In this document: piece by piece, positions 17,300 through 59,305 of the stretch | How the letters are laid out: every line of letters begins with the position of its first letter | Numbering within the stretch: position 1 is the first letter of the stretch | DNA from: Patescibacteria group bacterium | Lineage (GTDB): Bacteria; Patescibacteriota; Microgenomatia; UBA1400; MFAQ01 | Reading direction: 5' to 3' | NCBI GenBank assembly: GCA_943355005.1 | Contig: CALRDV010000003.1 | Location: forward strand, 72,590 to 136,589 | Length of the DNA: 64,000 nucleotides | Translations under genes and position numbers: made by a program | Notes under the pieces: generated by a model | Databases searched by the model: none | What the model saw: only the letters and a program-made list of their open reading frames with translations | What the model was told of the DNA's origin: nothing

Positions 17300-18997
17300 C
17301 TATATTTTTCTTAGTTGATTGTTTTCTATGACGTGGGTGACTCCGAGGGATTTTAGTTTGAAAATAATTTCGGGATTTAGGCCGTATGCGTTTATATTTT
17401 CGACCATGTCAATCCAGTCTTTTGTGGCGAAGCCGGAGAATCCGCCCAAGCGACGGTGTTTGTGAAACAGGGAGTATAAGGAACGAACAGATTCAATTTC
17501 GTGATCCGGCATGTTCCAGAGTTTGATAGGAAGTTCCAGTATGATATCGTCTGAGGGTAGATTTTTAACTTCTTGATATACGGGATGCATATTTATATTT
17601 ACTGGGTAACCTTTGAGAGGTAGGTCGGCTTCCAGAAACAAAAATGAAAGTATAAGTAGTATAAATGTAAATTTTGTCTTGGCAGCGAGATTCTTGAAAA
17701 TGGGAACTAGCTTGTAGCCGATAATGATTACTGCTGCGAGTAATGCGAGGAGGATGAAGCGGCTGGGAGTGCGGAAGCCGGTGAAGCCTGGGAAGAGGTA
17801 ATAGAAAAGGGCGTACGGAAGGGGAGTGGGGAAGCTAAATATTCGAAGATTTTTGCCGAATATCTTGAGGACTGGGCCGAGGGACATGATAAGGGAGAAG
17901 AATAAAATATATTTCCAGGGATCAAAAATATGGCGTTTCGGACCGCGCCAAAGAAATTGCGTTAAGTATTTCTTCAATGTCATTCCGGGCTTGACCCGGA
18001 ATCTATATAAATAAAATCCGCTAATTCTGGATTCCGGCTCGGTGGCCGGAATGACGACTTTTCTGTTTAGCCTGGATTGCCACGCCTTTTGAAATAGGCT
18101 CTCAATGACAAGAGTTGTGATAAAAAGAGTAATTACTGTCCGGCTGTGATATTTGGTGAAGATTTCGTCCAATCCTAGTGAGAAGGCGGCGGCGTCGCGG
18201 ATGGGTCGGGTGGCTTCGGGAAATTGTAAATGAAGCTGGAGATATGGAAAGAGTAAAGATATCCAGAGTGGAAGAATGAAAATGAATTGAATTAGAATTT
18301 TTAGAAACTGCTCTTTCTTTCTCCAAAACAGACAAAAACAAGCGAAAAAGATTAAGTAAAAGGTAAAAATGCTTTCAGCTAATTGGGCCGTACTGGAGAG
18401 CAGAACAAGTGTAAGAAAGATATTTTTGTCTGTGTCTTGGTATCTGAGGTAGAAATAGATGGTTAGGATAGTGAGCCAAAGTGAGAAAATTTGTAAATGG
18501 GGTAAGTAGGATAGGTGGAAGCCGGTAAAATTGAAAAGAATTGTAGCCAATAACGTAACCCAGTGATCCTTGAATAAATAGTTAAAAAGTAGGTATGAGC
18601 TAATGATGGTCAGGAGGAAATTAGTGATTAAAGCAACGTTAAAAATTAATACCGGGTGATTGGTCAGAGCTCGAAATGGGAGGGTTATTATGGATGTAGT
18701 CAAAAAGAGGTCGGAATAGGTAAGGGTGTCTTTCTCCGGGGCGAAAAAAGTGCCAGAATATAGAGGTTTGTGCTCGATTAAGTTGTTTTGAACTTGACCG
18801 ATGATATAAGCAATGAGACGAGTGTCGTTGTTGTCCGGTAGGATGTCCTTGGGGTAGATAAAAGCCGACGGATAAACAAATAATATTAGAAGTATCGAAA
18901 AAATGCTGATGATAAGCCACTTTCTGACCTGCAAGGAGAGTCCTTGCAGGTAAATAGGGGTATGGGGATTCATGGCTAGAGTATAGCAGTGATACAA
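17300..18997 (-). CDS. Large polytopic membrane protein. A GT-C-type glycosyltransferase-like fold is possible but not verified.
   Basis: 565 aa with many TM segments. A composite hairpin repeat is embedded in-frame at 17979-18085. Confidence 0.7.
   Translation of the reverse strand: MYHCYTLAMNPHTPIYLQGLSLQVRKWLIISIFSILLILFVYPSAFIYPKDILPDNNDTRLIAYIIGQVQNNLIEHKPLYSGTFFAPEKDTLTYSDLFLTTSIITLPFRALTNHPVLIFNVALITNFLLTIISSYLLFNYLFKDHWVTLLATILFNFTGFHLSYLPHLQIFSLWLTILTIYFYLRYQDTDKNIFLTLVLLSSTAQLAESIFTFYLIFFACFCLFWRKKEQFLKILIQFIFILPLWISLLFPYLQLHLQFPEATRPIRDAAAFSLGLDEIFTKYHSRTVITLFITTLVIESLFQKAWQSRLNRKVVIPATEPESRISGFYLYRFRVKPGMTLKKYLTQFLWRGPKRHIFDPWKYILFFSLIMSLGPVLKIFGKNLRIFSFPTPLPYALFYYLFPGFTGFRTPSRFILLALLAAVIIIGYKLVPIFKNLAAKTKFTFILLILSFLFLEADLPLKGYPVNINMHPVYQEVKNLPSDDIILELPIKLWNMPDHEIESVRSLYSLFHKHRRLGGFSGFATKDWIDMVENINAYGLNPEIIFKLKSLGVTHVIENNQLRKI
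17979..18085. repeat. Composite hairpin repeat: reverse type B unit, forward type B unit, then a partial type E unit, all inside the membrane protein CDS.
   Basis: tgtcattccgggcttgacccggaatctatata ... ctggattccggctcggtggccggaatgacgac ... ggattgccacg. Confidence 0.8.
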
Positions 18998-30050: not shown

Positions 30051-31094
30051 ATGAGTTTAAAGGTGGGAATTGTGGGGTTACCAAATGTCGGGAAGTCGAC
30101 ACTGTTTAATGCTTTGTTAAAAAGGCAGCAGGCTTTGGTGGCAAATTACCCGTTTGCGACGATTGAGCCGAATGTAGGGATAGTAGAAGTGCCGGACGAA
30201 AGACTGAATGTTTTGGCAAAAATGTCCCAGAGTGTGAAAATCGTGCCAGCAACAGTGGAATTTGTGGATATTGCCGGTTTAGTGGCCGGGGCAGCGACCG
30301 GAGCGGGACTGGGTAATAAATTCTTGACTCATATTCGTGATGTGGATGTGATATTGCAAGTTTTAAGAGATTTTAAAGATTCCGAGATTGTGAAAGAGGG
30401 TAGTGTGGACCCCAAAACGGACTATGAAGTAATCGAAACCGAACTAATCTTGAAGGACTTAGAAACAGTTTCCAAAATACGGGAAAGTAAAGATCTAAGA
30501 CAAAAAGGCCTTGAGAAGAAAAGGGGAGTGGTGGAGAAACTTTTTGAGGGATTAAACAATGGACAGCCTGCAAGGACCATCCTTGCAGGTGAGGAGGTTG
30601 AGCTGGCTAGAGATTTGTTTCTCCTGACCATGAAAAAAGAGGTTAAGGTGTTTAATGTGAGTGAGATGGATCCCCGCATTCGCGAGGATGACAACGGAGA
30701 GTTCTGTGTTTGTGCAAAGATTGAGTCGGAGCTTTCAAGCTTGTCAGATGAAGACGCTAAAGCCTATATGGCTGATTTGGGGATTAAGGAATCCGGATTG
30801 GATAAGCTAATCAGGAAGGCCTACGAGACTCTAGGGCTTATTAGCTTCCTGACCACTGGAATCACTGAGAGCAGGGCTTGGACGATTGAGAAGGGGACTA
30901 AGGCACCCCAAGCAGCTGCTGTAATTCATACAGACTTTGAGAAGAAGTTTATCAAGGCTAAGGTTTGCGGCTATGACGATTTTGTGGCTTGTGGAGGCTG
31001 GAAGGAAGGGGTAGAAAAAGGGAAAGTCAGGTTTGAAGGTAAGGAATATGTAGTGAAGGATGGTGATGTGGTGGAGTTTATGGTTGGTGCTTAA
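30051..31094 (+). CDS. ychF: Ribosome-binding ATPase YchF (Obg family).
   Basis: G1 motif GIVGLPNVGKSTLFNAL and a TGS-like C-terminus. Carries two in-frame palindromic insertions at 30567 and 30668. Confidence 0.9.
   Translation: MSLKVGIVGLPNVGKSTLFNALLKRQQALVANYPFATIEPNVGIVEVPDERLNVLAKMSQSVKIVPATVEFVDIAGLVAGAATGAGLGNKFLTHIRDVDVILQVLRDFKDSEIVKEGSVDPKTDYEVIETELILKDLETVSKIRESKDLRQKGLEKKRGVVEKLFEGLNNGQPARTILAGEEVELARDLFLLTMKKEVKVFNVSEMDPRIREDDNGEFCVCAKIESELSSLSDEDAKAYMADLGIKESGLDKLIRKAYETLGLISFLTTGITESRAWTIEKGTKAPQAAAVIHTDFEKKFIKAKVCGYDDFVACGGWKEGVEKGKVRFEGKEYVVKDGDVVEFMVGA
30567..30591 (+). repeat. REP-type palindrome cctgcaaggaccatccttgcaggtg inside ychF, encoding PARTILAG.
   Basis: Same palindrome as the copies flanking the RAYT gene at 53.6-54.9 kb. 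Confidence 0.8.
30668..30693 (+). repeat. Hairpin repeat, type F (ggatccccgcattcgcgaggatgaca) inside ychF.
   Basis: Reverse complement of the unit at 36136-36163. Shares the CTGGAT...ATGACA ends with the family. Confidence 0.7.
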
Positions 31095-50729: not shown

Positions 50730-51557
50730 ATGTCAAAAAGAACAAGATTTATATTGGTAAGCGGGATTGTGGCCTTTTGTCTCTGGCTTACAACTACAGC
50801 ACAGGTCGATTACCGATTTGGGCTGTATTTGGCTGTAGCTGCTCTATCTTATGTTTTATCAATCTGGGTTCTGTTCGACGATTTAAAGGGTATTGAGTGG
50901 CTCACTTTGATGGTCTTGCCGGTAATGTTTACTTTGGGATGTGGTTTATTTGCCAACTTCTTGCCGGCAGCCATCCCAAGAATGTTTGGTATGGCTTTTC
51001 AGCTGGAAACTTCATTGCTAATGGCGGGAGTTTTGAAAATTGTTTATTTTGTTCTTTATGCCTTAGCTATGTATGGAATCCTCTTAATTGAGAATATTTT
51101 TTCCGTAGCATCAATTCGAACTATTCAGTTGTTTAGAGCCGCCAGGTCGGTTAACTTTATCTTGACACTTGTTGCTTCACTATTCTTCTATACAGTTGCT
51201 TTGAGCTTAAAAATGCCCTTTTGGTGGATCGCTCCAATGGTATTCGTTGTTTCTTTGATACTATCCTTTCCAAGCTTCTGGAGTGTCGATTTGAAGGGTG
51301 ATATCCTTCATGATGCCGGAAGATTCTCCCTGGTAGTGAGCTGGGTGACAGCCACAGCCTCAATTGCTCTATCTTTTTGGCCGATCAAGGCTTTTATGGG
51401 TGGTTTGATGCTCACGGCGATACTTTACTCGCTTTTAGGCATACTCGAGCAGCGTTTATCCAGTAGGGTATACCTGGAGAGTCTGCTGGAGTATGGGGTA
51501 ACAGTTATGATTATTTTTGTAATTGGGTTCCTGACGACTTCCTGGGTGGGTGGCTAA
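50730..51557 (+). CDS. Hypothetical polytopic membrane protein.
   Basis: 275 aa with multiple TM segments. Confidence 0.55.
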   Translation: MSKRTRFILVSGIVAFCLWLTTTAQVDYRFGLYLAVAALSYVLSIWVLFDDLKGIEWLTLMVLPVMFTLGCGLFANFLPAAIPRMFGMAFQLETSLLMAGVLKIVYFVLYALAMYGILLIENIFSVASIRTIQLFRAARSVNFILTLVASLFFYTVALSLKMPFWWIAPMVFVVSLILSFPSFWSVDLKGDILHDAGRFSLVVSWVTATASIALSFWPIKAFMGGLMLTAILYSLLGILEQRLSSRVYLESLLEYGVTVMIIFVIGFLTTSWVGG

Positions 51558-51626
51558 ATTGTATTAATTTGCGCGTAATCTGCCGTCGTAAAATTATTTT
51601 TGCTAAGGCAAACGAAGGGGGAGAGG

Positions 51627-51698
51627 GCCTATAATCATTGAGCCTATAATAACCTATAACTCATCAAGCCCTATAATAGTTTTCACGAAACCTATAAG
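51627..51698 (+). repeat. Five direct repeats of (G/A/C)CCTATAA(T/C/G) spaced 10-21 nt apart, plus two copies of agttttcacg(a/g).
   Basis: Read directly. Iteron-like, and each copy also looks like a perfect TATAAT -10 box. Confidence 0.6.
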
Positions 51699-51720
51699 TT
51701 TTCACGGATTTAGCACAAAT

Positions 51721-51729
51721 TGTGGATAA
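51721..51729 (-). promoter_or_regulatory. Perfect DnaA-box 9-mer (TTATCCACA on the minus strand).
   Basis: tgtggataa read directly. A 1-mismatch copy tgtagataa lies at 52022-52030. Confidence 0.3.
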
Positions 51730-52322
51730 CTGCTAGGGGGTGATAGGGATTGATATAGTAATTAGGCACGAATGCATGTGGAGTGGGATAGGTTCGAAGT
51801 CGTACCTATATTTAATTATTAATCTGCAAATTAGCCACGTCCCCGAGGCTTAGCTTAGTGTAAAAGTGTGATGAGTGTAGTTGCAGTTCTATGCTATTCC
51901 CTATTTTGAGTCCGGAGAAGCGATACAGAAGAATCGTATACAATACGTCGCACAATAATACTTTTGCGACGTATCTCGTAAAAACAGCCTCCAGGGAAGT
52001 ATGTTTTACATTCTGTCTATTTGTGTAGATAATCCCGAAACTTTCTGACAAGTCTCTCCTCCGATCCTTCTATGGACCCATTTCTTTTGGGTTTATGCCT
52101 GCCGGCCTCGGTTTGTGCCTAATTGTATATAAACCCGAATGTTTGAGGCTATTTTACTTTTTTAGGCTTTGGACGGATACACCAAGTATTTTGTCCAATG
52201 ACTATCTACCCACAAATAGTTCCAGAAGCCGTTTTAGAGCCATTCTACAGCCCCGGTTTTTGACCTAATTTTGGTATTAAAAAACCCCGAGTTGTCCGGG
52301 GGTAGTCTTAGGTGGATTTAGG

Positions 52323-52624
52323 CTATTTCAGTATCTCTAAGATTTTATCTCTTGTTTTTTTATAGAAGTCCGGATTGTCTTCAAACACCTCAGGCAATTC
52401 CATTTCGAAGTATATTTTTATGAGTTCGTGATATTCAAATACTTCAATTGGTACTGAGACATTTGGCCATGCTTTAGCTAAAGACACTATCCTTTTGCAG
52501 TTTTTGATTCCTGTTTCGCCCTCATAGTTACCGGTAAAGGTTTTCTGTATGGGCTTATGGTAAAGATTGTAACTTGAGATTTTTCGATAATTTCTTTAAT
52601 TATTTCGTCAATAGTTAATGGCAT
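52323..52624 (-). pseudogene. Frameshifted small gene (MPLTIDEIIKEIIEKSQVTIFTISPYRKP, then a -1 shift, then FTGNYEGETGIKNCKRIVSLAKAWPNVSVPIEVFEYHELIKIYFEMELPEVFEDNPDFYKKTRDKILEILK).
   Basis: Two overlapping reading frames join into about 100 aa if one frameshift near 52530 is allowed. Terminator hairpin at 52279-52305. Confidence 0.35.
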
Positions 52625-53006
52625 TTTGGCTCCTTCAATGTTCAGATTTATTTAGTATTATATAGGATGTTTGGTTTAAGTCAACAAGCTAAGGTGTTAT
52701 GTTTAACCGTTTTGTAAAACATACACCCCTCTCCCCTCTTTAGGTCTCCCCTTTTTATTTTCACAATGTGAAAAGTCAAATTAGAAAATATATGGATGTA
52801 TCAATATAAATATTAATGATTTAACTAGTCTTTAATTGTTTTGCAAGCCGTTTTAGAGGTATTGTATGGGTTCTTGGGCATATTTTGTACGAAATTTATT
52901 GAAATAATGAACTCAATATTATTATTTATCCGGTTAGAGTTAAAAATGTTTGTTTGTAAAATGTTAATTTAATATCATATTAATCGTCTAATAAAAAACC
53001 CGTGAT

Positions 53007-53619: not shown

Positions 53620-53642
53620 CCTACAAGGACCATCCTTGCAGG
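53620..53642 (+). repeat. REP palindrome (cctacaaggaccatccttgcagg) immediately upstream of the RAYT gene.
   Basis: 10-bp stem with a cca loop. One of six copies in the window. Confidence 0.8.
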
Positions 53643-53654
53643 ATTCTTTAAATA

Positions 53655-54362
53655 ATGATCGAGTGTAAGATTAAATTAATGCCATCAAAAAATGTCGTTA
53701 AAGAATATGAGGCTGGTGGGTATTATCATATATATAACCGAGGGGTTGAAAAAAGACAGATTTTTATGGATGAGATGGACTACTCGGTTTATATCTCATA
53801 TCTGGCTACATATTTATCACCTGAAGACTTGCAAGGACCATCCTTGCAAGAGAAAGTATCTCCTTCCAAGGTTTCGAAGAATTATTTTGGAGAAATTAAA
53901 TTACTTGCTTATTGCTTGATGCCGAACCACTTTCATTTGATGCTAACTCAAGAAACTGAACACGGAATAGACCATTTTATGAGATCTATGTCTACCAAAT
54001 ACGTTCGATATTTTAATACTAAATACAAAAGAGTTGGTCCACTATTTCAAGGAATATATAAAGCGGTTAGAATTCAAGATGAATATCAATTTGTTTACCT
54101 TTCGAAATATATTCACCGGAATCCAATCGATTTATTTGCCTGCAAGGATGGTCCTTGCAGGTTGGTGGATTACAAATATTCATCGTATGGAAATTATCTG
54201 CATTTGTTTAGTCAAGGATGGCTGGATACTGAGGAAATTTCAGGCTTGTTTGGTAATGTAAATAAGCAAATTTCGTATCGGAACTACAGAGAGTTTGTGG
54301 AAGGAACATCTGACGAAGACATAACCATGATTAAGGATGTTGTCCTCGATATTGATGTTTAA
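53655..54362 (+). CDS. REP-associated tyrosine transposase (IS200-like Y1 HUH transposase, RAYT).
   Basis: HUH motif LMPNHFHLM, catalytic Tyr region YLSKYIHRNP, and N-terminus YYHIYNRGVEKRQIF. Flanked by inverted REPs. Two further REP copies lie inside the CDS at 53828-53850 and 54139-54161. Confidence 0.8.
   Translation: MIECKIKLMPSKNVVKEYEAGGYYHIYNRGVEKRQIFMDEMDYSVYISYLATYLSPEDLQGPSLQEKVSPSKVSKNYFGEIKLLAYCLMPNHFHLMLTQETEHGIDHFMRSMSTKYVRYFNTKYKRVGPLFQGIYKAVRIQDEYQFVYLSKYIHRNPIDLFACKDGPCRLVDYKYSSYGNYLHLFSQGWLDTEEISGLFGNVNKQISYRNYREFVEGTSDEDITMIKDVVLDIDV
53828..53850 (+). repeat. REP palindrome inside the RAYT coding sequence (encodes LQGPSLQ).
   Basis: cttgcaaggaccatccttgcaag. Confidence 0.75.
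54139..54161 (-). repeat. REP palindrome in the opposite orientation inside the RAYT coding sequence (encodes ACKDGPCRL).
   Basis: cctgcaaggatggtccttgcagg. Confidence 0.75.
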
Positions 54363-54871
54363 TCACCTGCAAGGATGGTCCTTGCAGGTCTTAAGGGTTG
54401 AAGAGAACTGTCGATGAGAGCGGAGGAAGTCCACAAGGATATAGACTTGGGAATGTGGAGAAAGGTTAGTTGAGAATAAAGGTCTCCCCTATTGATTAAT
54501 TCCATAATTTTCCAACAAATTTGGTTGCAATGCGAATTACCCATTGCTTTGCCAAGTTTCATATATTCGTCTGGCTCTAGAAAATTATTAAGGTTGGTTT
54601 GCTCAGGAGTGTTATGCTCAAATTCGTTGCGAAATTGATTTGTGCAGATAGTTTCGATTCTAATTTTATCTTGATCTACACCAGTGTATGATCCTAAACC
54701 GAGAATAAATTTGGGTTGGTCGTGCAACAACAGTCTTAGAAAGTGGCTGAAATTGCTTGGATTTGTAATGTAACTGCAATCTGTGTTGCGAAGTTTATAC
54801 AAAATATTTTTGGTGGGAGGAAAAGAAAATGCGTAGATTTGGTTTTCGAAGAGGTTTGTTGTATTTTTCAT
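54359..54871 (-). CDS. Hypothetical protein, possibly pyroglutamyl-peptidase I (C15)-like.
   Basis: GNSHCNQICWKI and LTFLHIPKS resemble the C15 Cys and His motifs (G-x-x-x-C-N and IHVP). The N-terminus is atypical. The C-terminus is encoded by a REP copy. Confidence 0.4.
   Translation of the reverse strand: MKNTTNLFENQIYAFSFPPTKNILYKLRNTDCSYITNPSNFSHFLRLLLHDQPKFILGLGSYTGVDQDKIRIETICTNQFRNEFEHNTPEQTNLNNFLEPDEYMKLGKAMGNSHCNQICWKIMELINRGDLYSQLTFLHIPKSISLWTSSALIDSSLQPLRPARTILAGD
54366..54388 (-). repeat. REP palindrome downstream of RAYT, forming an inverted pair with the copy at 53620.
   Basis: cctgcaaggatggtccttgcagg. Confidence 0.8.
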
Positions 54872-54895
54872 AGCCGAGAGATTGCATTGCTATTG

Positions 54896-54918
54896 CCTGC
54901 AAGGATGGTCCTTGCAGG
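54896..54918 (-). repeat. REP palindrome.
   Basis: cctgcaaggatggtccttgcagg. Confidence 0.8.
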
Positions 54919-54931
54919 TGAAGCAGGTAAG

Positions 54932-55594
54932 TTAATATTTGAATAATTTGTTGTAGCAGTTTGTACTCTTAATATAACCTGCGACTTGGGCTTCTTTTTC
55001 GGAGCAAAACCATTGTTCCCCTAAGTACAATTGGACTTTGGATACCTGATAGCTGGAACAACCTGGGAAGAAATAAATTTTTGTGCCCTTGCTACCAATG
55101 CTCCCCTTAATGTTACATTTAGGATTTACTGGATTGACTATCTGAGTGCAGATCTCGCCGTAAATCCCCTTCCCCGATTTCATGGCATCTTGATGGAGTT
55201 TGAGAACTGTTTCTCTCTCAGGAATTTCTTGAGAATTATATCCAGCCCACCCAGAGGCTATTATTTCCTGATTAATATATTTATTACCAAGATAGATGGA
55301 GGCGACATCGCGACCATAGGAATCAGTGATGATGGGGACGATTTTGACCAACCTATCCCCTATCAAACTTTTCAATAGTTCAGCCGACTCTTTACTGCCA
55401 CACAAACCTTTTTCCGGAGCTTCGACACCAGCCAGTCGGACACGACGAGAATTTTCGATGAGAATAGTATCTCCATCTAGTACGTCAACGACGTGGTGAA
55501 GTTCGCTTCTGGTGGCTTTGATGTATTGAAAAATATTGACACTAATCGAGAAAATAAGAAGAAAGATAAGCAAAATTTGCAGGAATTTTGACAT
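54932..55594 (-). CDS. Secreted thermonuclease (SNase-like) with a C-terminal Cys-containing domain.
   Basis: Signal peptide, then VLDGDTI ... RLAGVEAPE nuclease motifs, then the C-terminal module CNIKGS...KIYFFPGCSSY...WFCSEKEAQVAGY. Confidence 0.75.
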   Translation of the reverse strand: MSKFLQILLIFLLIFSISVNIFQYIKATRSELHHVVDVLDGDTILIENSRRVRLAGVEAPEKGLCGSKESAELLKSLIGDRLVKIVPIITDSYGRDVASIYLGNKYINQEIIASGWAGYNSQEIPERETVLKLHQDAMKSGKGIYGEICTQIVNPVNPKCNIKGSIGSKGTKIYFFPGCSSYQVSKVQLYLGEQWFCSEKEAQVAGYIKSTNCYNKLFKY

Positions 55595-58138: not shown

Positions 58139-59305
58139 GTGAAGCGAAATATTTCAATCGCCTACTTTTTGTCTTTTGCCTTTCATTCCTGGTTTTGGAT
58201 GGGAAATTGGATATTTTATTATCTGAGCTTCGGAAGTTATGCTACGGTAGCCTTGTTAGATTCCGGATCGGTTATGGCCGGTTTATTGATGGAAATCCCG
58301 ACGGGGGCATTCGCCGATATCATGGGTAAAAAGAAAACTTTAATGATTGCCTTCCTGCTTCAAGCTATTGGGAATATTATGATGGGTATTTCCGGAAGTT
58401 TTTGGATGCTGGCGATTTCTCTTTGGCTTTTTGTGTGTGTCGGTGGAGCTTTTTACTCGGGGACGCTCGACGCTTTAGTTTTTGATAGCTTAAAGGTGCT
58501 GAAGGAAGAACATTTATTTGAGAGAAAAATCGGAACCATTAACGCTACCAGACTCTGGGCCATGGCTATTTGTGGGGTGATAGGAGGCCTCCTGTACTCT
58601 TTTTCACCTGGGCTGCCATATATATTGAATGGCATTGTTTGTCTTACGGGGTTGATTGCATGTTTTTATCTGGAAGAACCTAAAATTGATACAGATAAAT
58701 ATTCGATTATGAGTTTCTTTAAGCAAAACACCTTAGGAATCAAAGAACTGTTTAAAAACGCTTATATGTCTAAGCTATCCTTATTTTTGATTGCTACGGG
58801 CGCTATGGGGATATTTATTTACAACATCTTAGATGATTTACTAGCAGTGGAATATGGCTACTCTCCCCTTGGGGTGAGTATTCTATTTTCGATTGTTTGT
58901 CTGGTGGCAGGCTTTGCTTCTTTGTATCTGCCCAGATGGAAGGTGAAGCTTGACCAGAGATTGGTACTAATTGTTTCGATGATTGTGATGGCTTTACTGC
59001 TGATACTGTCCCCTGTTGTTGGTATGATTGCCGGAGGCGTACTGCTATTATTTAGAGTAATTCTTGAGGTGCTGGGAGATAATGCGGCTTCTGTGATGGT
59101 TAACCTAAATACCGAATCAAAAGTTAGAGCCACGACACTTTCTTCTTTGAGTTTACTGCGTAGTATTCCCTATGCCGTCGGTGGGAGTTTGCTCGGAAGT
59201 GCTGTTCTCCTCGTGGGTGGAGCTAGAAATTTCGCGATGTGGTTTGGGCTGGTGCTCATGATCATCGCCGTAGTGTTGGGATTGAGGATTGAAAAGAGGG
59301 TGTAA
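58139..59305 (+). CDS. MFS transporter.
   Basis: 388 aa with about 12 TM segments and the motif GAFADIMGKKK. Confidence 0.75.
   Translation: MKRNISIAYFLSFAFHSWFWMGNWIFYYLSFGSYATVALLDSGSVMAGLLMEIPTGAFADIMGKKKTLMIAFLLQAIGNIMMGISGSFWMLAISLWLFVCVGGAFYSGTLDALVFDSLKVLKEEHLFERKIGTINATRLWAMAICGVIGGLLYSFSPGLPYILNGIVCLTGLIACFYLEEPKIDTDKYSIMSFFKQNTLGIKELFKNAYMSKLSLFLIATGAMGIFIYNILDDLLAVEYGYSPLGVSILFSIVCLVAGFASLYLPRWKVKLDQRLVLIVSMIVMALLLILSPVVGMIAGGVLLLFRVILEVLGDNAASVMVNLNTESKVRATTLSSLSLLRSIPYAVGGSLLGSAVLLVGGARNFAMWFGLVLMIIAVVLGLRIEKRV

Follow-up and report, generated by a model that had tools for sequence, protein, structure and literature searches.

The Transposase Locus and Its Palindrome

We analyzed a 64,000-nt stretch of a Patescibacteria contig (CALRDV010000003.1), hereafter the window, which carries a gene for a Y1 HUH transposase and seven copies of a 23-bp palindrome. 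Five copies are at the transposase locus and two outside it (18928 and 30567); window counts of the palindrome refer to this whole span. The initial annotation had described a REP-associated tyrosine transposase (RAYT) gene with its repetitive extragenic palindromes (REPs). Each of the six palindrome copies that it listed was recovered at its position, and a seventh exact copy, at 18928, had been overlooked. The gene and the palindromes are collected in Table 1.

Table 1. The transposase gene and the palindrome copies of the window, with their counterparts in the metagenome-assembled genome (MAG) CAZUFH01.
Feature	Coordinates	Strand	Description	Counterpart in CAZUFH01
rayT-like gene, Y1 HUH transposase	53655..54362	+	Intact; 235 aa from the first ATG, 227 aa from the likely start at 53679 (MPSKN)	
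Upstream cognate palindrome	53620..53642		CCTACAAGGA-CCA-TCCTTGCAGG, one A.C mismatch; distance to the first ATG 12 nt, to the probable start 36 nt	L011, at 436
Internal palindrome i1	53828..53850		CTTGCAAGGA-CCA-TCCTTGCAAG; read LQGPSLQ, residues 59-65, before the HUH motif	L011
Internal palindrome i2	54139..54161		CCTGCAAGGA-TGG-TCCTTGCAGG; read CKDGPCR, residues 162-168, just past the catalytic-Tyr helix	L011
Downstream cognate palindrome	54366..54388		Loop TGG; starts 4 nt past the rayT stop codon; also within the last codons (PARTILAGD, then stop) of the convergent open reading frame (ORF) 54359-54871	L011, at 1172
Palindrome in spacer	54896..54918		Loop TGG; in the short gap that separates the start of ORF 54359-54871(-) from the end of the SNase gene 54932-55594(-)	L034, at 479, immediately 5' of a homologue (72% identical) of the 170-aa ORF
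ychF palindrome	30567..30589		Loop CCA; inside ychF (30051-31094, +), read PARTILAG, helical insert domain	L022, loop GTA
Membrane-protein palindrome	18928..18950		On the + strand the loop is GAG; read YLQGLSLQV at codons 8-16 of a 556-aa ORF on the - strand, ATG at 18973	L019, in the N-terminus of a 60%-identical homologue

The consensus of the palindrome is CCTGCAAGGA-NNN-TCCTTGCAGG. At up to three mismatches it was found seven times in the window compared with 0.00 expected from 100 shuffles, and its 10-nt half-site, at up to one mismatch, 20 times compared with 3.3 expected. Searches of the window with the half-site and with variable loops gave no degenerate copies beyond the seven. When the copies were aligned with their flanks, the repeat unit proved to be the palindrome alone, with at most an A...T pair that lengthens the stem to 11 bp. 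As single-stranded DNA, each copy was predicted to fold into a hairpin of 10-11 bp (z-scores from -4.0 to -6.6). The stem is a perfect palindrome and the orientation of a copy is set only by the 3-nt loop, which is CCA at 30567, 53620, and 53828, its reverse complement TGG at 54139, 54366, and 54896, and GAG at 18928. The pair that flanks the gene (53620 and 54366) had been called inverted, and so it is, in the loop only (CCA vs. TGG), because the stem itself is a perfect palindrome. The stems at 54139, 54366, 54896, 30567, and 18928 match the consensus exactly. The i1 copy differs from it at two positions (C>T and G>A) which pair with each other, so that its 10-bp stem is still perfect. No stop codon occurs in any of the six frames of the palindrome, which is read as PARxxLAG, LQGxSLQ or CKDxPCR, and in these tightly packed genomes it accordingly occupies gene ends and, in frame, the interior of genes.

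The Protein Is a Y1 Transposase of the TnpA-REP Kind

Most homologues begin at MPSKN, and the true start of the gene is therefore probably 53679. The protein matched the Pfam family Y1_Tnp (PF01797) with 37.4 bits against a cut-off of 23. This match covered profile positions 40-121, and the N-terminal part is split from the rest by the linker that i1 encodes. The score for the E. coli-type equivalog REP_Tyr_transpos (NCBIfam NF047646) was 40.6 bits, under the cut-off of 80. LMPNHFHLM and YIHRNP are both present, with the HUH motif NHFH at residues 91-94 and the catalytic-tyrosine motif YIHRNP at residues 152-157. NHFH and Y152 were invariant in alignments of 27 and 93 sequences, and Y152 lies in a predicted helix.

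The AlphaFold2 model, built from the 93-sequence alignment (pLDDT 85.5, pTM 0.84), has the Y1 core beta-alpha-beta-beta-alpha-beta-alpha. Its best PDB match in Foldseek was 4er8_A, the E. coli TnpA-REP bound to a REP hairpin, with an E-value of 1.3e-5 at 13% sequence identity. The ISDra2, IS608, and IS200 transposases followed, and the Foldseek probability was 1.00 for 4er8, 2xm3, 2a6o, and 2f4f. A search of the PDB with the transposase sequence gave no match at E <= 1. These results upheld the earlier reading of the ORF as a Y1 HUH transposase: the Pfam score is above the cut-off, both motifs are intact, and the best fold match is TnpA-REP. They support its placement with the RAYT (TnpA-REP) kind of these enzymes. 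The palindrome, moreover, is not confined to this locus.

Full-length homologues number in the thousands, and the best 120 were 56-81% identical and came from Collierbacteria, Microgenomates, and other members of the candidate phyla radiation (CPR). The window holds one copy of the transposase gene. A homologue of ORF 58139-59305 was found downstream of the transposase gene in the homologous locus L046, so that synteny is partly kept. Some genomes carry two transposase paralogues, which lie side by side in L077 and L108 and on contig Ga0075756_110 are separated by 14 kb (L052 and L057). The transposase is apparently domesticated.

Orthologous Sites Change Together

The seven sites were compared with those of CAZUFH01, a diverged MAG whose transposase is 79% identical to that of the window. 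All seven have a palindrome at the orthologous position (Table 1), the proteins concerned being 60-79% identical. The stems matched at 18-20 of 20 bases, while the 60-nt flanks were 48-83% identical. The loops differed as a set. With reverse complements counted together, the window has CCA at six sites and CTC at one, and CAZUFH01 has GTA at six and TCA at one. Other genomes were likewise uniform, with CAG/CTG in 7/7 copies of JBDRQW01 and GAC in 3/3 copies of CAZENT01, whose ychF copy has GTC. The copies of one genome thus share their stem and very nearly their loop, and in more distant relatives the stem has changed as well as the loop. That the same 3-nt change arose independently at six sites is not credible, and the occupation of the same sites by genome-specific loops thus points to concerted evolution. 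Judged from these alignments, the copies of the window and of CAZUFH01 are old, position-stable sites that evolve in concert. The near-identity of the window copies is explained in the same way, since the loops differ between genomes at the same sites.

The exact palindrome was found in 45 stretches of a collection of species-representative genomes, mostly CPR (Collierbacteria, Beckwithbacteria, Woesebacteria, Gottesmanbacteria, Saccharibacteria, and Patescibacteria). The majority of copies lie outside the transposase gene, many of them within the first or last few codons of long ORFs. The number per genome is only about 10-15 (13 in CAZUFH01, 12 of them exact, and 7 in JBDRQW01). A paired inverted arrangement, like that of bacterial interspersed mosaic elements (BIMEs), had been proposed as a check. 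One close inverted doublet, resembling a REPIN, was found in L019 at 1167 and 1253 (loops GTA and TAC, 86 bp apart), and the copies were otherwise mostly single. The doublet is placed immediately 5' of the membrane-protein gene that is orthologous to window positions 17300-18973 and extends into its first codons.

Several of the MAGs are labeled "uncultured Pseudomonadales," namely CAZUFH01, CAZENT01, CAYHNG01, CAZYUF01, and CAZDQA01 (loci L001, L003, L005, L006, L011, L017, L019, L022, L027, L028, L031-L036, and L038). The compared loci of CAZUFH01 and CAZENT01 encode close homologues of the Collierbacteria-type window (RAYT 79%, YchF 80-96%, and membrane protein 60%), and the label of these MAGs is probably wrong.

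Cognate Hairpins at Fixed Places Across the Family

Hairpins were then sought at four places (upstream, i1, i2, and downstream) in 80 homologous loci from metagenomes and three from genomes. Upstream copies are present in many of these loci, and in many the locus's own variant of the palindrome recurs at several of the four places. L046 carries CCTGCGAGGA-gac at all four, and L052 and L053 carry CCTGCAGGGC-cag at all four. Other loci have variants of their own, which are CCTTTCGGGA in L055, ACTTCAAGTA in L061, CCTACAAGGT in L051, CCTGCGAGGT in L054, ACTTCAAGGC in L062, GCTTCGCAAGGC in L111, and AGAGGTCTCTCCTC in L122. A flanking hairpin of 9 bp or more was present at 42 loci, and in 24 of these the same hairpin recurred within the coding sequence, compared with 65 matches in 3104 comparisons (2%) for foreign hairpins. 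The paralogues on contig Ga0075756_110 differ in their cognate variant as well, with CCTGCAGGGC at L052 and CCTGCGAGGA at L057.

The internal copies are confined to residues 60-65 or 160-168, and the same two peaks appeared when the coding sequences were scanned without bias for perfect hairpins of 8 bp or longer. These positions are common to the protein family down to about 41% identity. In the alignment the palindromes underlie the motifs L-Q/R-G-x-S-L/S-Q (residues 59-65) and C-K/E-D-x-P-C/R-R (residues 162-168), whose residues covary as base pairing predicts: LQG..SLQ changes with LRG..SSQ, and CKD..PCR with CED..PRR. Across the family the i2 palindrome is read in three frames, as CKDxPCR, PARxxLAG, and L..LEV. 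The persistence of the hairpin in three reading frames suggests that the DNA or RNA hairpin, rather than the peptide, is retained there. The i2 segment is 8-19 aa long, and the lengths of the i1 and i2 segments are alike with or without a hairpin, which is indicative only, as 33 of 81 loci were parsed by regular expression. In the structural model i1 (pLDDT <50) and i2 (about 62) are the only internal stretches of low confidence, and the model suggests that both peptides are likely disordered surface linkers.

The loops around the gene follow the order X, X, rcX, rcX (rc, reverse complement) in the window and L011 and partly in L051 and L021, and all have one orientation in L046, L052/L053, and L061. 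No conclusion was drawn from orientation.

The Copy in ychF

Compared with solved YchF structures, the window protein has no insertion at the palindrome, and the first arm overlies the native PAR (GKPARTF in Thermus thermophilus). Most of the nearer members among the 120 closest YchF proteins read PARxxLAG, with TI, IL, II, SI, MI, MV, SL, TV, or TL as the loop residues. More distant YchF proteins read PAREILKD without the palindrome, and the protein length is unchanged. The ychF of L128 contains CCTGCGAGGA-TTA-TCCTCGCAGG, which is a perfect palindrome by virtue of two synonymous compensating changes (GCA>GCG and CTT>CTC), and the ychF palindromes of L127 and L129 have one G.T mismatch each.

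Two other origins of the copy were considered and rejected. A chance origin from the PAR motif does not account for the second 10-nt arm, which matches too, nor for the genome-specific loops and compensatory changes of the relatives. An insertion like that of a Rickettsia palindromic element (RPE), in ychF or in the transposase, would have brought a gain in length, and there is none.

Two further features were seen in ychF relatives. The YchF proteins P0144, P0158, P0180, and P0216 have LRG[LSY]SSQE in place of the LRQKGME of others, some 20 residues before the PAR site, and this peptide is what the palindrome variant CTGCGAGGA-NNN-TCCTCGCAG encodes. The translation suggests a second intragenic palindrome site in the ychF of some lineages. 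The ychF ortholog of L022 (CAZUFH010000115.1) aligns in two pieces, residues 1-136 and 140-346, with the break at about 2892-2904, so that the sequence near residue 138 may contain a frameshift, an indel, or an error of assembly.

A Probable REPtron-Like Unit That Evolves in Concert

Taken together, these results make it likely that the locus is a REPtron-like unit, in which one Y1 HUH transposase and its cognate 23-bp palindrome, in a Collierbacteria-type genome (Microgenomates, CPR), form a position-stable set that evolves in concert. By analogy with the E. coli TnpA-REP, the protein would bind the hairpin when it is extruded on single-stranded DNA. Cleavage and rejoining at the feet of the hairpin would then overwrite existing copies from another copy, and such replacement, or an exchange like gene conversion, would be more frequent than the creation of new sites. 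The two internal copies would be tolerated because the peptides that they encode are probably disordered surface linkers, and through the internal hairpins the protein may regulate its own gene.

Several observations weigh against this interpretation. The GT[AG]G guide tetranucleotide conserved at the 5' hairpin foot is absent from the seven window copies and from 23 copies of three other genomes, and in the same copies no conserved flank was found other than the stem-extending A...T, so that the cleavage site cannot be placed. Homogenization is incomplete, because in L047 the i1 stem and the downstream stem are unlike (CCTTCAAGGA vs. CCTACGAGGA) and the ychF copy of the same genome is a third, mismatched stem. 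In L130, the closest ychF relative (91% identical), the palindrome is lost, and the ychF copy is thus dispensable. The number of palindromes per genome and the single-copy status of the gene were taken from other MAGs. Binding, cleavage, and replacement of the hairpin by this protein are inferred. Finally, recurrent local insertion into permissive linkers, with no function, could also explain the fixed internal sites.

Alternative Explanations

The alternative that survives best is an elaboration of the REPtron-like unit and is compatible with it: the intragenic hairpins would be functional cis-elements, to which the protein binds in its own gene or mRNA and so limits its own expression. The i2 hairpin in three reading frames with a peptide of variable length, the compensated double change at i1 in the window, and the locus-by-locus match of internal and flanking copies are all in its favor, as is the position of the upstream copy 12-36 nt before the start codon. 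However, many family members have no recognizable i1 or i2 hairpin (i2 was found in 4 of the 31 loci in the bin of 39-44% identity), and insertion into permissive linkers followed by homogenization predicts the same pattern. We hold this proposal as tentative and rather unlikely. A bolder form, which we regard as doubtful, is that in these minimal genomes the Y1 enzyme would not chiefly spread selfish palindromes but would maintain a small, position-fixed set of hairpins, including those in essential genes and in its own gene, overwriting copies so that the set switches together, with the hairpins of its own gene as control sites.

The initial annotation held that the palindromes "have invaded" rayT and ychF, that is, that an active RAYT/REP system recently transposed them there. 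The near-identity of the window copies would fit such a spread, and REP insertions inside genes, tnpA-REP included, are documented (PMC6006769, PMC3733652). But every window site is occupied at the orthologous position in CAZUFH01, where the proteins are only 60-79% identical, the internal sites are shared by family proteins with as little as about 41% identity, no residues are gained through the ychF copy, and the likeness of the copies is explained by concerted evolution. The claim of invasion was therefore given up, and recent spread appears quite improbable.

We gave equally little credence to the view that the palindromes are host signals, either sites for another DNA-binding protein or hairpins for RNA stability or termination, with the Y1 gene merely among them. 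It would account for stems that are kept at orthologous sites while the flanks diverge and for the many copies at gene ends, and E. coli REPs bind gyrase and IHF and stabilize mRNA (PMC3733652). However, the palindrome variant changes along with the Y1 gene over about 80 loci, two paralogues on one contig each have their own variant, and four of the seven window copies are inside or immediately beside the Y1 gene, with a fifth 0.5 kb downstream. Nor does a T-run follow the hairpins, and intrinsic terminators were rejected on that ground.

An autonomous insertion sequence of the IS200/IS605 type, with the flanking palindromes as its left-end and right-end hairpins, is barely credible: the Pfam Y1_Tnp match, the presence of IS608 and ISDra2 TnpA among the structural matches, and the hairpins on both sides of the gene speak for it, but the tyrosine motif is Y---NP (class 2, RAYT-like) where IS200 has Y---Q (PMC6006769 Table 1), TnpA-REP is the best match by fold, the gene is single in the 64-kb window, solo palindromes lie far from any transposase gene, the position is conserved with synteny partly kept, both ends are the same perfect palindrome instead of distinct left and right ends, and no large neighboring ORF has a transposase-type Pfam match, though such elements often carry tnpB.

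Neighborhood of the Locus

The stretch 51560-53000 had been taken for an insertion hotspot, and this was not borne out, as it contains no palindrome copy, Rfam match, or Pfam match. Rfam and tRNA scans of 50.5-56.5 kb and Pfam searches with the small ORFs of 51.5-53 kb found nothing. Short direct repeats occur at 51629-51706, just past ORF 50730-51557, with CCTATAA about five times in 80 nt and AGTTTTCACG twice, 19 nt apart. They look like iterons or operator sites, and no gene or RNA was found beside them. The gene-poor stretch also contains two copies of a 33-nt repeat (52215-52247 and 52834-52866; 76% identical, 619 bp apart, core AAGCCGTTTTAGAG), which do not form an array. A second palindromic family, an ATGACA hairpin, had also been proposed; in the arm order ATGACA-N0-12-TGTCAT it had no match in the window, and the opposite order was not searched.

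ORF 54359-54871 (-), of 170 aa, has no Pfam match. Its homologue in L034 is 72% identical, and by this conservation it is a real conserved gene. Its open frame runs through the 54366 palindrome (..RPARTILAGD, then stop) and overlaps the rayT stop by 4 nt, with a putative C-terminus there. The gene at 54932-55594 (-), 14 nt from the 54896 palindrome, encodes a homologue of staphylococcal nuclease (Pfam SNase) of the secreted type, whose C-terminal domain is of the 'sunset' family (NCBIfam NF051437).

Comparison With Known Systems

RAYTs have been described as single-copy, vertically inherited genes flanked by their REPs (PMC5581495, PMC6006769), and intragenic REPs have been reported in several species (PMC6006769, PMC3733652). 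In-frame REPs inside the tnpA-REP genes themselves have been published for subclass 2.4 (Cyanobacteria and Bacteroidetes), where they lie in a peripheral region of the protein (PMC6006769). For subclass 2.1, either no REP-like sequences or terminal inverted repeats instead have been found near the gene (PMC6006769).

The locus had been called a "classic RAYT/REP layout," and the core of this description held, since a Y1 gene of the RAYT kind is flanked by a cognate palindrome that has copies elsewhere. It shares with the E. coli TnpA-REP (YafM, 4er8; subclass 2.2 of Quentin et al., 2018, Group 2 of Bertels et al., 2017) the Y1 HUH fold, the Y---NP motif, the flanking cognate palindromes, the dispersed copies, and apparently a low gene copy number and a conserved location. 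The word "classic" did not hold. Unlike YafM, to which it is 13% identical, the window protein has about 70 extra C-terminal residues and scores under the NCBIfam RAYT cut-off. Its palindrome has no GTAG foot, forms a perfect, bulge-free stem of 10-11 bp, and has copies inside coding sequence. A REP number of over 100 was not found in any genome counted, with 7 copies in the 64 kb of the window, 13 in CAZUFH01, and 7 in JBDRQW01. About 10-15 copies per genome, mostly single, stand in the place of hundreds and of BIME or REPIN doublets.

By inspection of motifs only, the transposase family looks like subclass 2.1 (Group 1 of Bertels, including TIRYTs), and not like 2.2 or 2.4. The motifs NH[YF]H (here NHFH), FQ or W[EQ] (here LFQG), and Y[IV]HLNP (here YIHRNP, with R for L) fit 2.1, as do YKYSSY, for the SS motif of its C-terminal proximal domain, and the length of 227-235 aa, for its median of 238 aa (PMC6006769 Table 1). 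In contrast to subclass 2.1 as published, the CPR clade bears cognate hairpins both around the gene and within it. With subclass 2.4 it has in common the REP copies inside the transposase gene that leave the frame unbroken. However, the two sites of the window gene are fixed and lie on either side of the HuH-Y interval, with no gain in length and no GTAG, and the gene has FQ and YIHRNP where 2.4 has WQ and YIxNNP. RPEs and intragenic REPs, too, are palindromes translated in the frame of a functional gene, commonly as part of a loop or linker (PMC3733652). RPEs and most reported intragenic REPs are insertions of 20-80 residues, whereas the ychF copy of the window leaves the protein length unchanged, coincides with a native motif, and occupies orthologous positions in different genomes.

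To our knowledge, work on RAYT/REP systems has dealt almost exclusively with Proteobacteria and Cyanobacteria, where the REPs are abundant, extragenic, and provided with a GTAG foot. In a literature search that was not exhaustive, no report of a system of this kind from the CPR was found. The system of the window differs from those known in its CPR host, its 2.1-like motifs, two fixed internal sites outside the HuH-Y interval with no gain in length, the absence of GTAG, a very low copy number, and orthologous sites, including that in ychF, that change in concert.

For annotation, motifs of CPR proteins such as PARxxLAG, LQGxSLQ, and CKDxPCR can stem from the translation of a palindrome and need not be features of the protein. 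The family also offers a clean case of concerted evolution, in which the way RAYTs act on REPs (copying, replacing, or maintaining them) is testable with a 23-nt substrate and a 227-aa protein. Furthermore, subclass 2.1 (Group 1) is the largest RAYT subclass and has been described as REP-less, and a large CPR clade with 2.1-type motifs and cognate hairpins would revise this picture.

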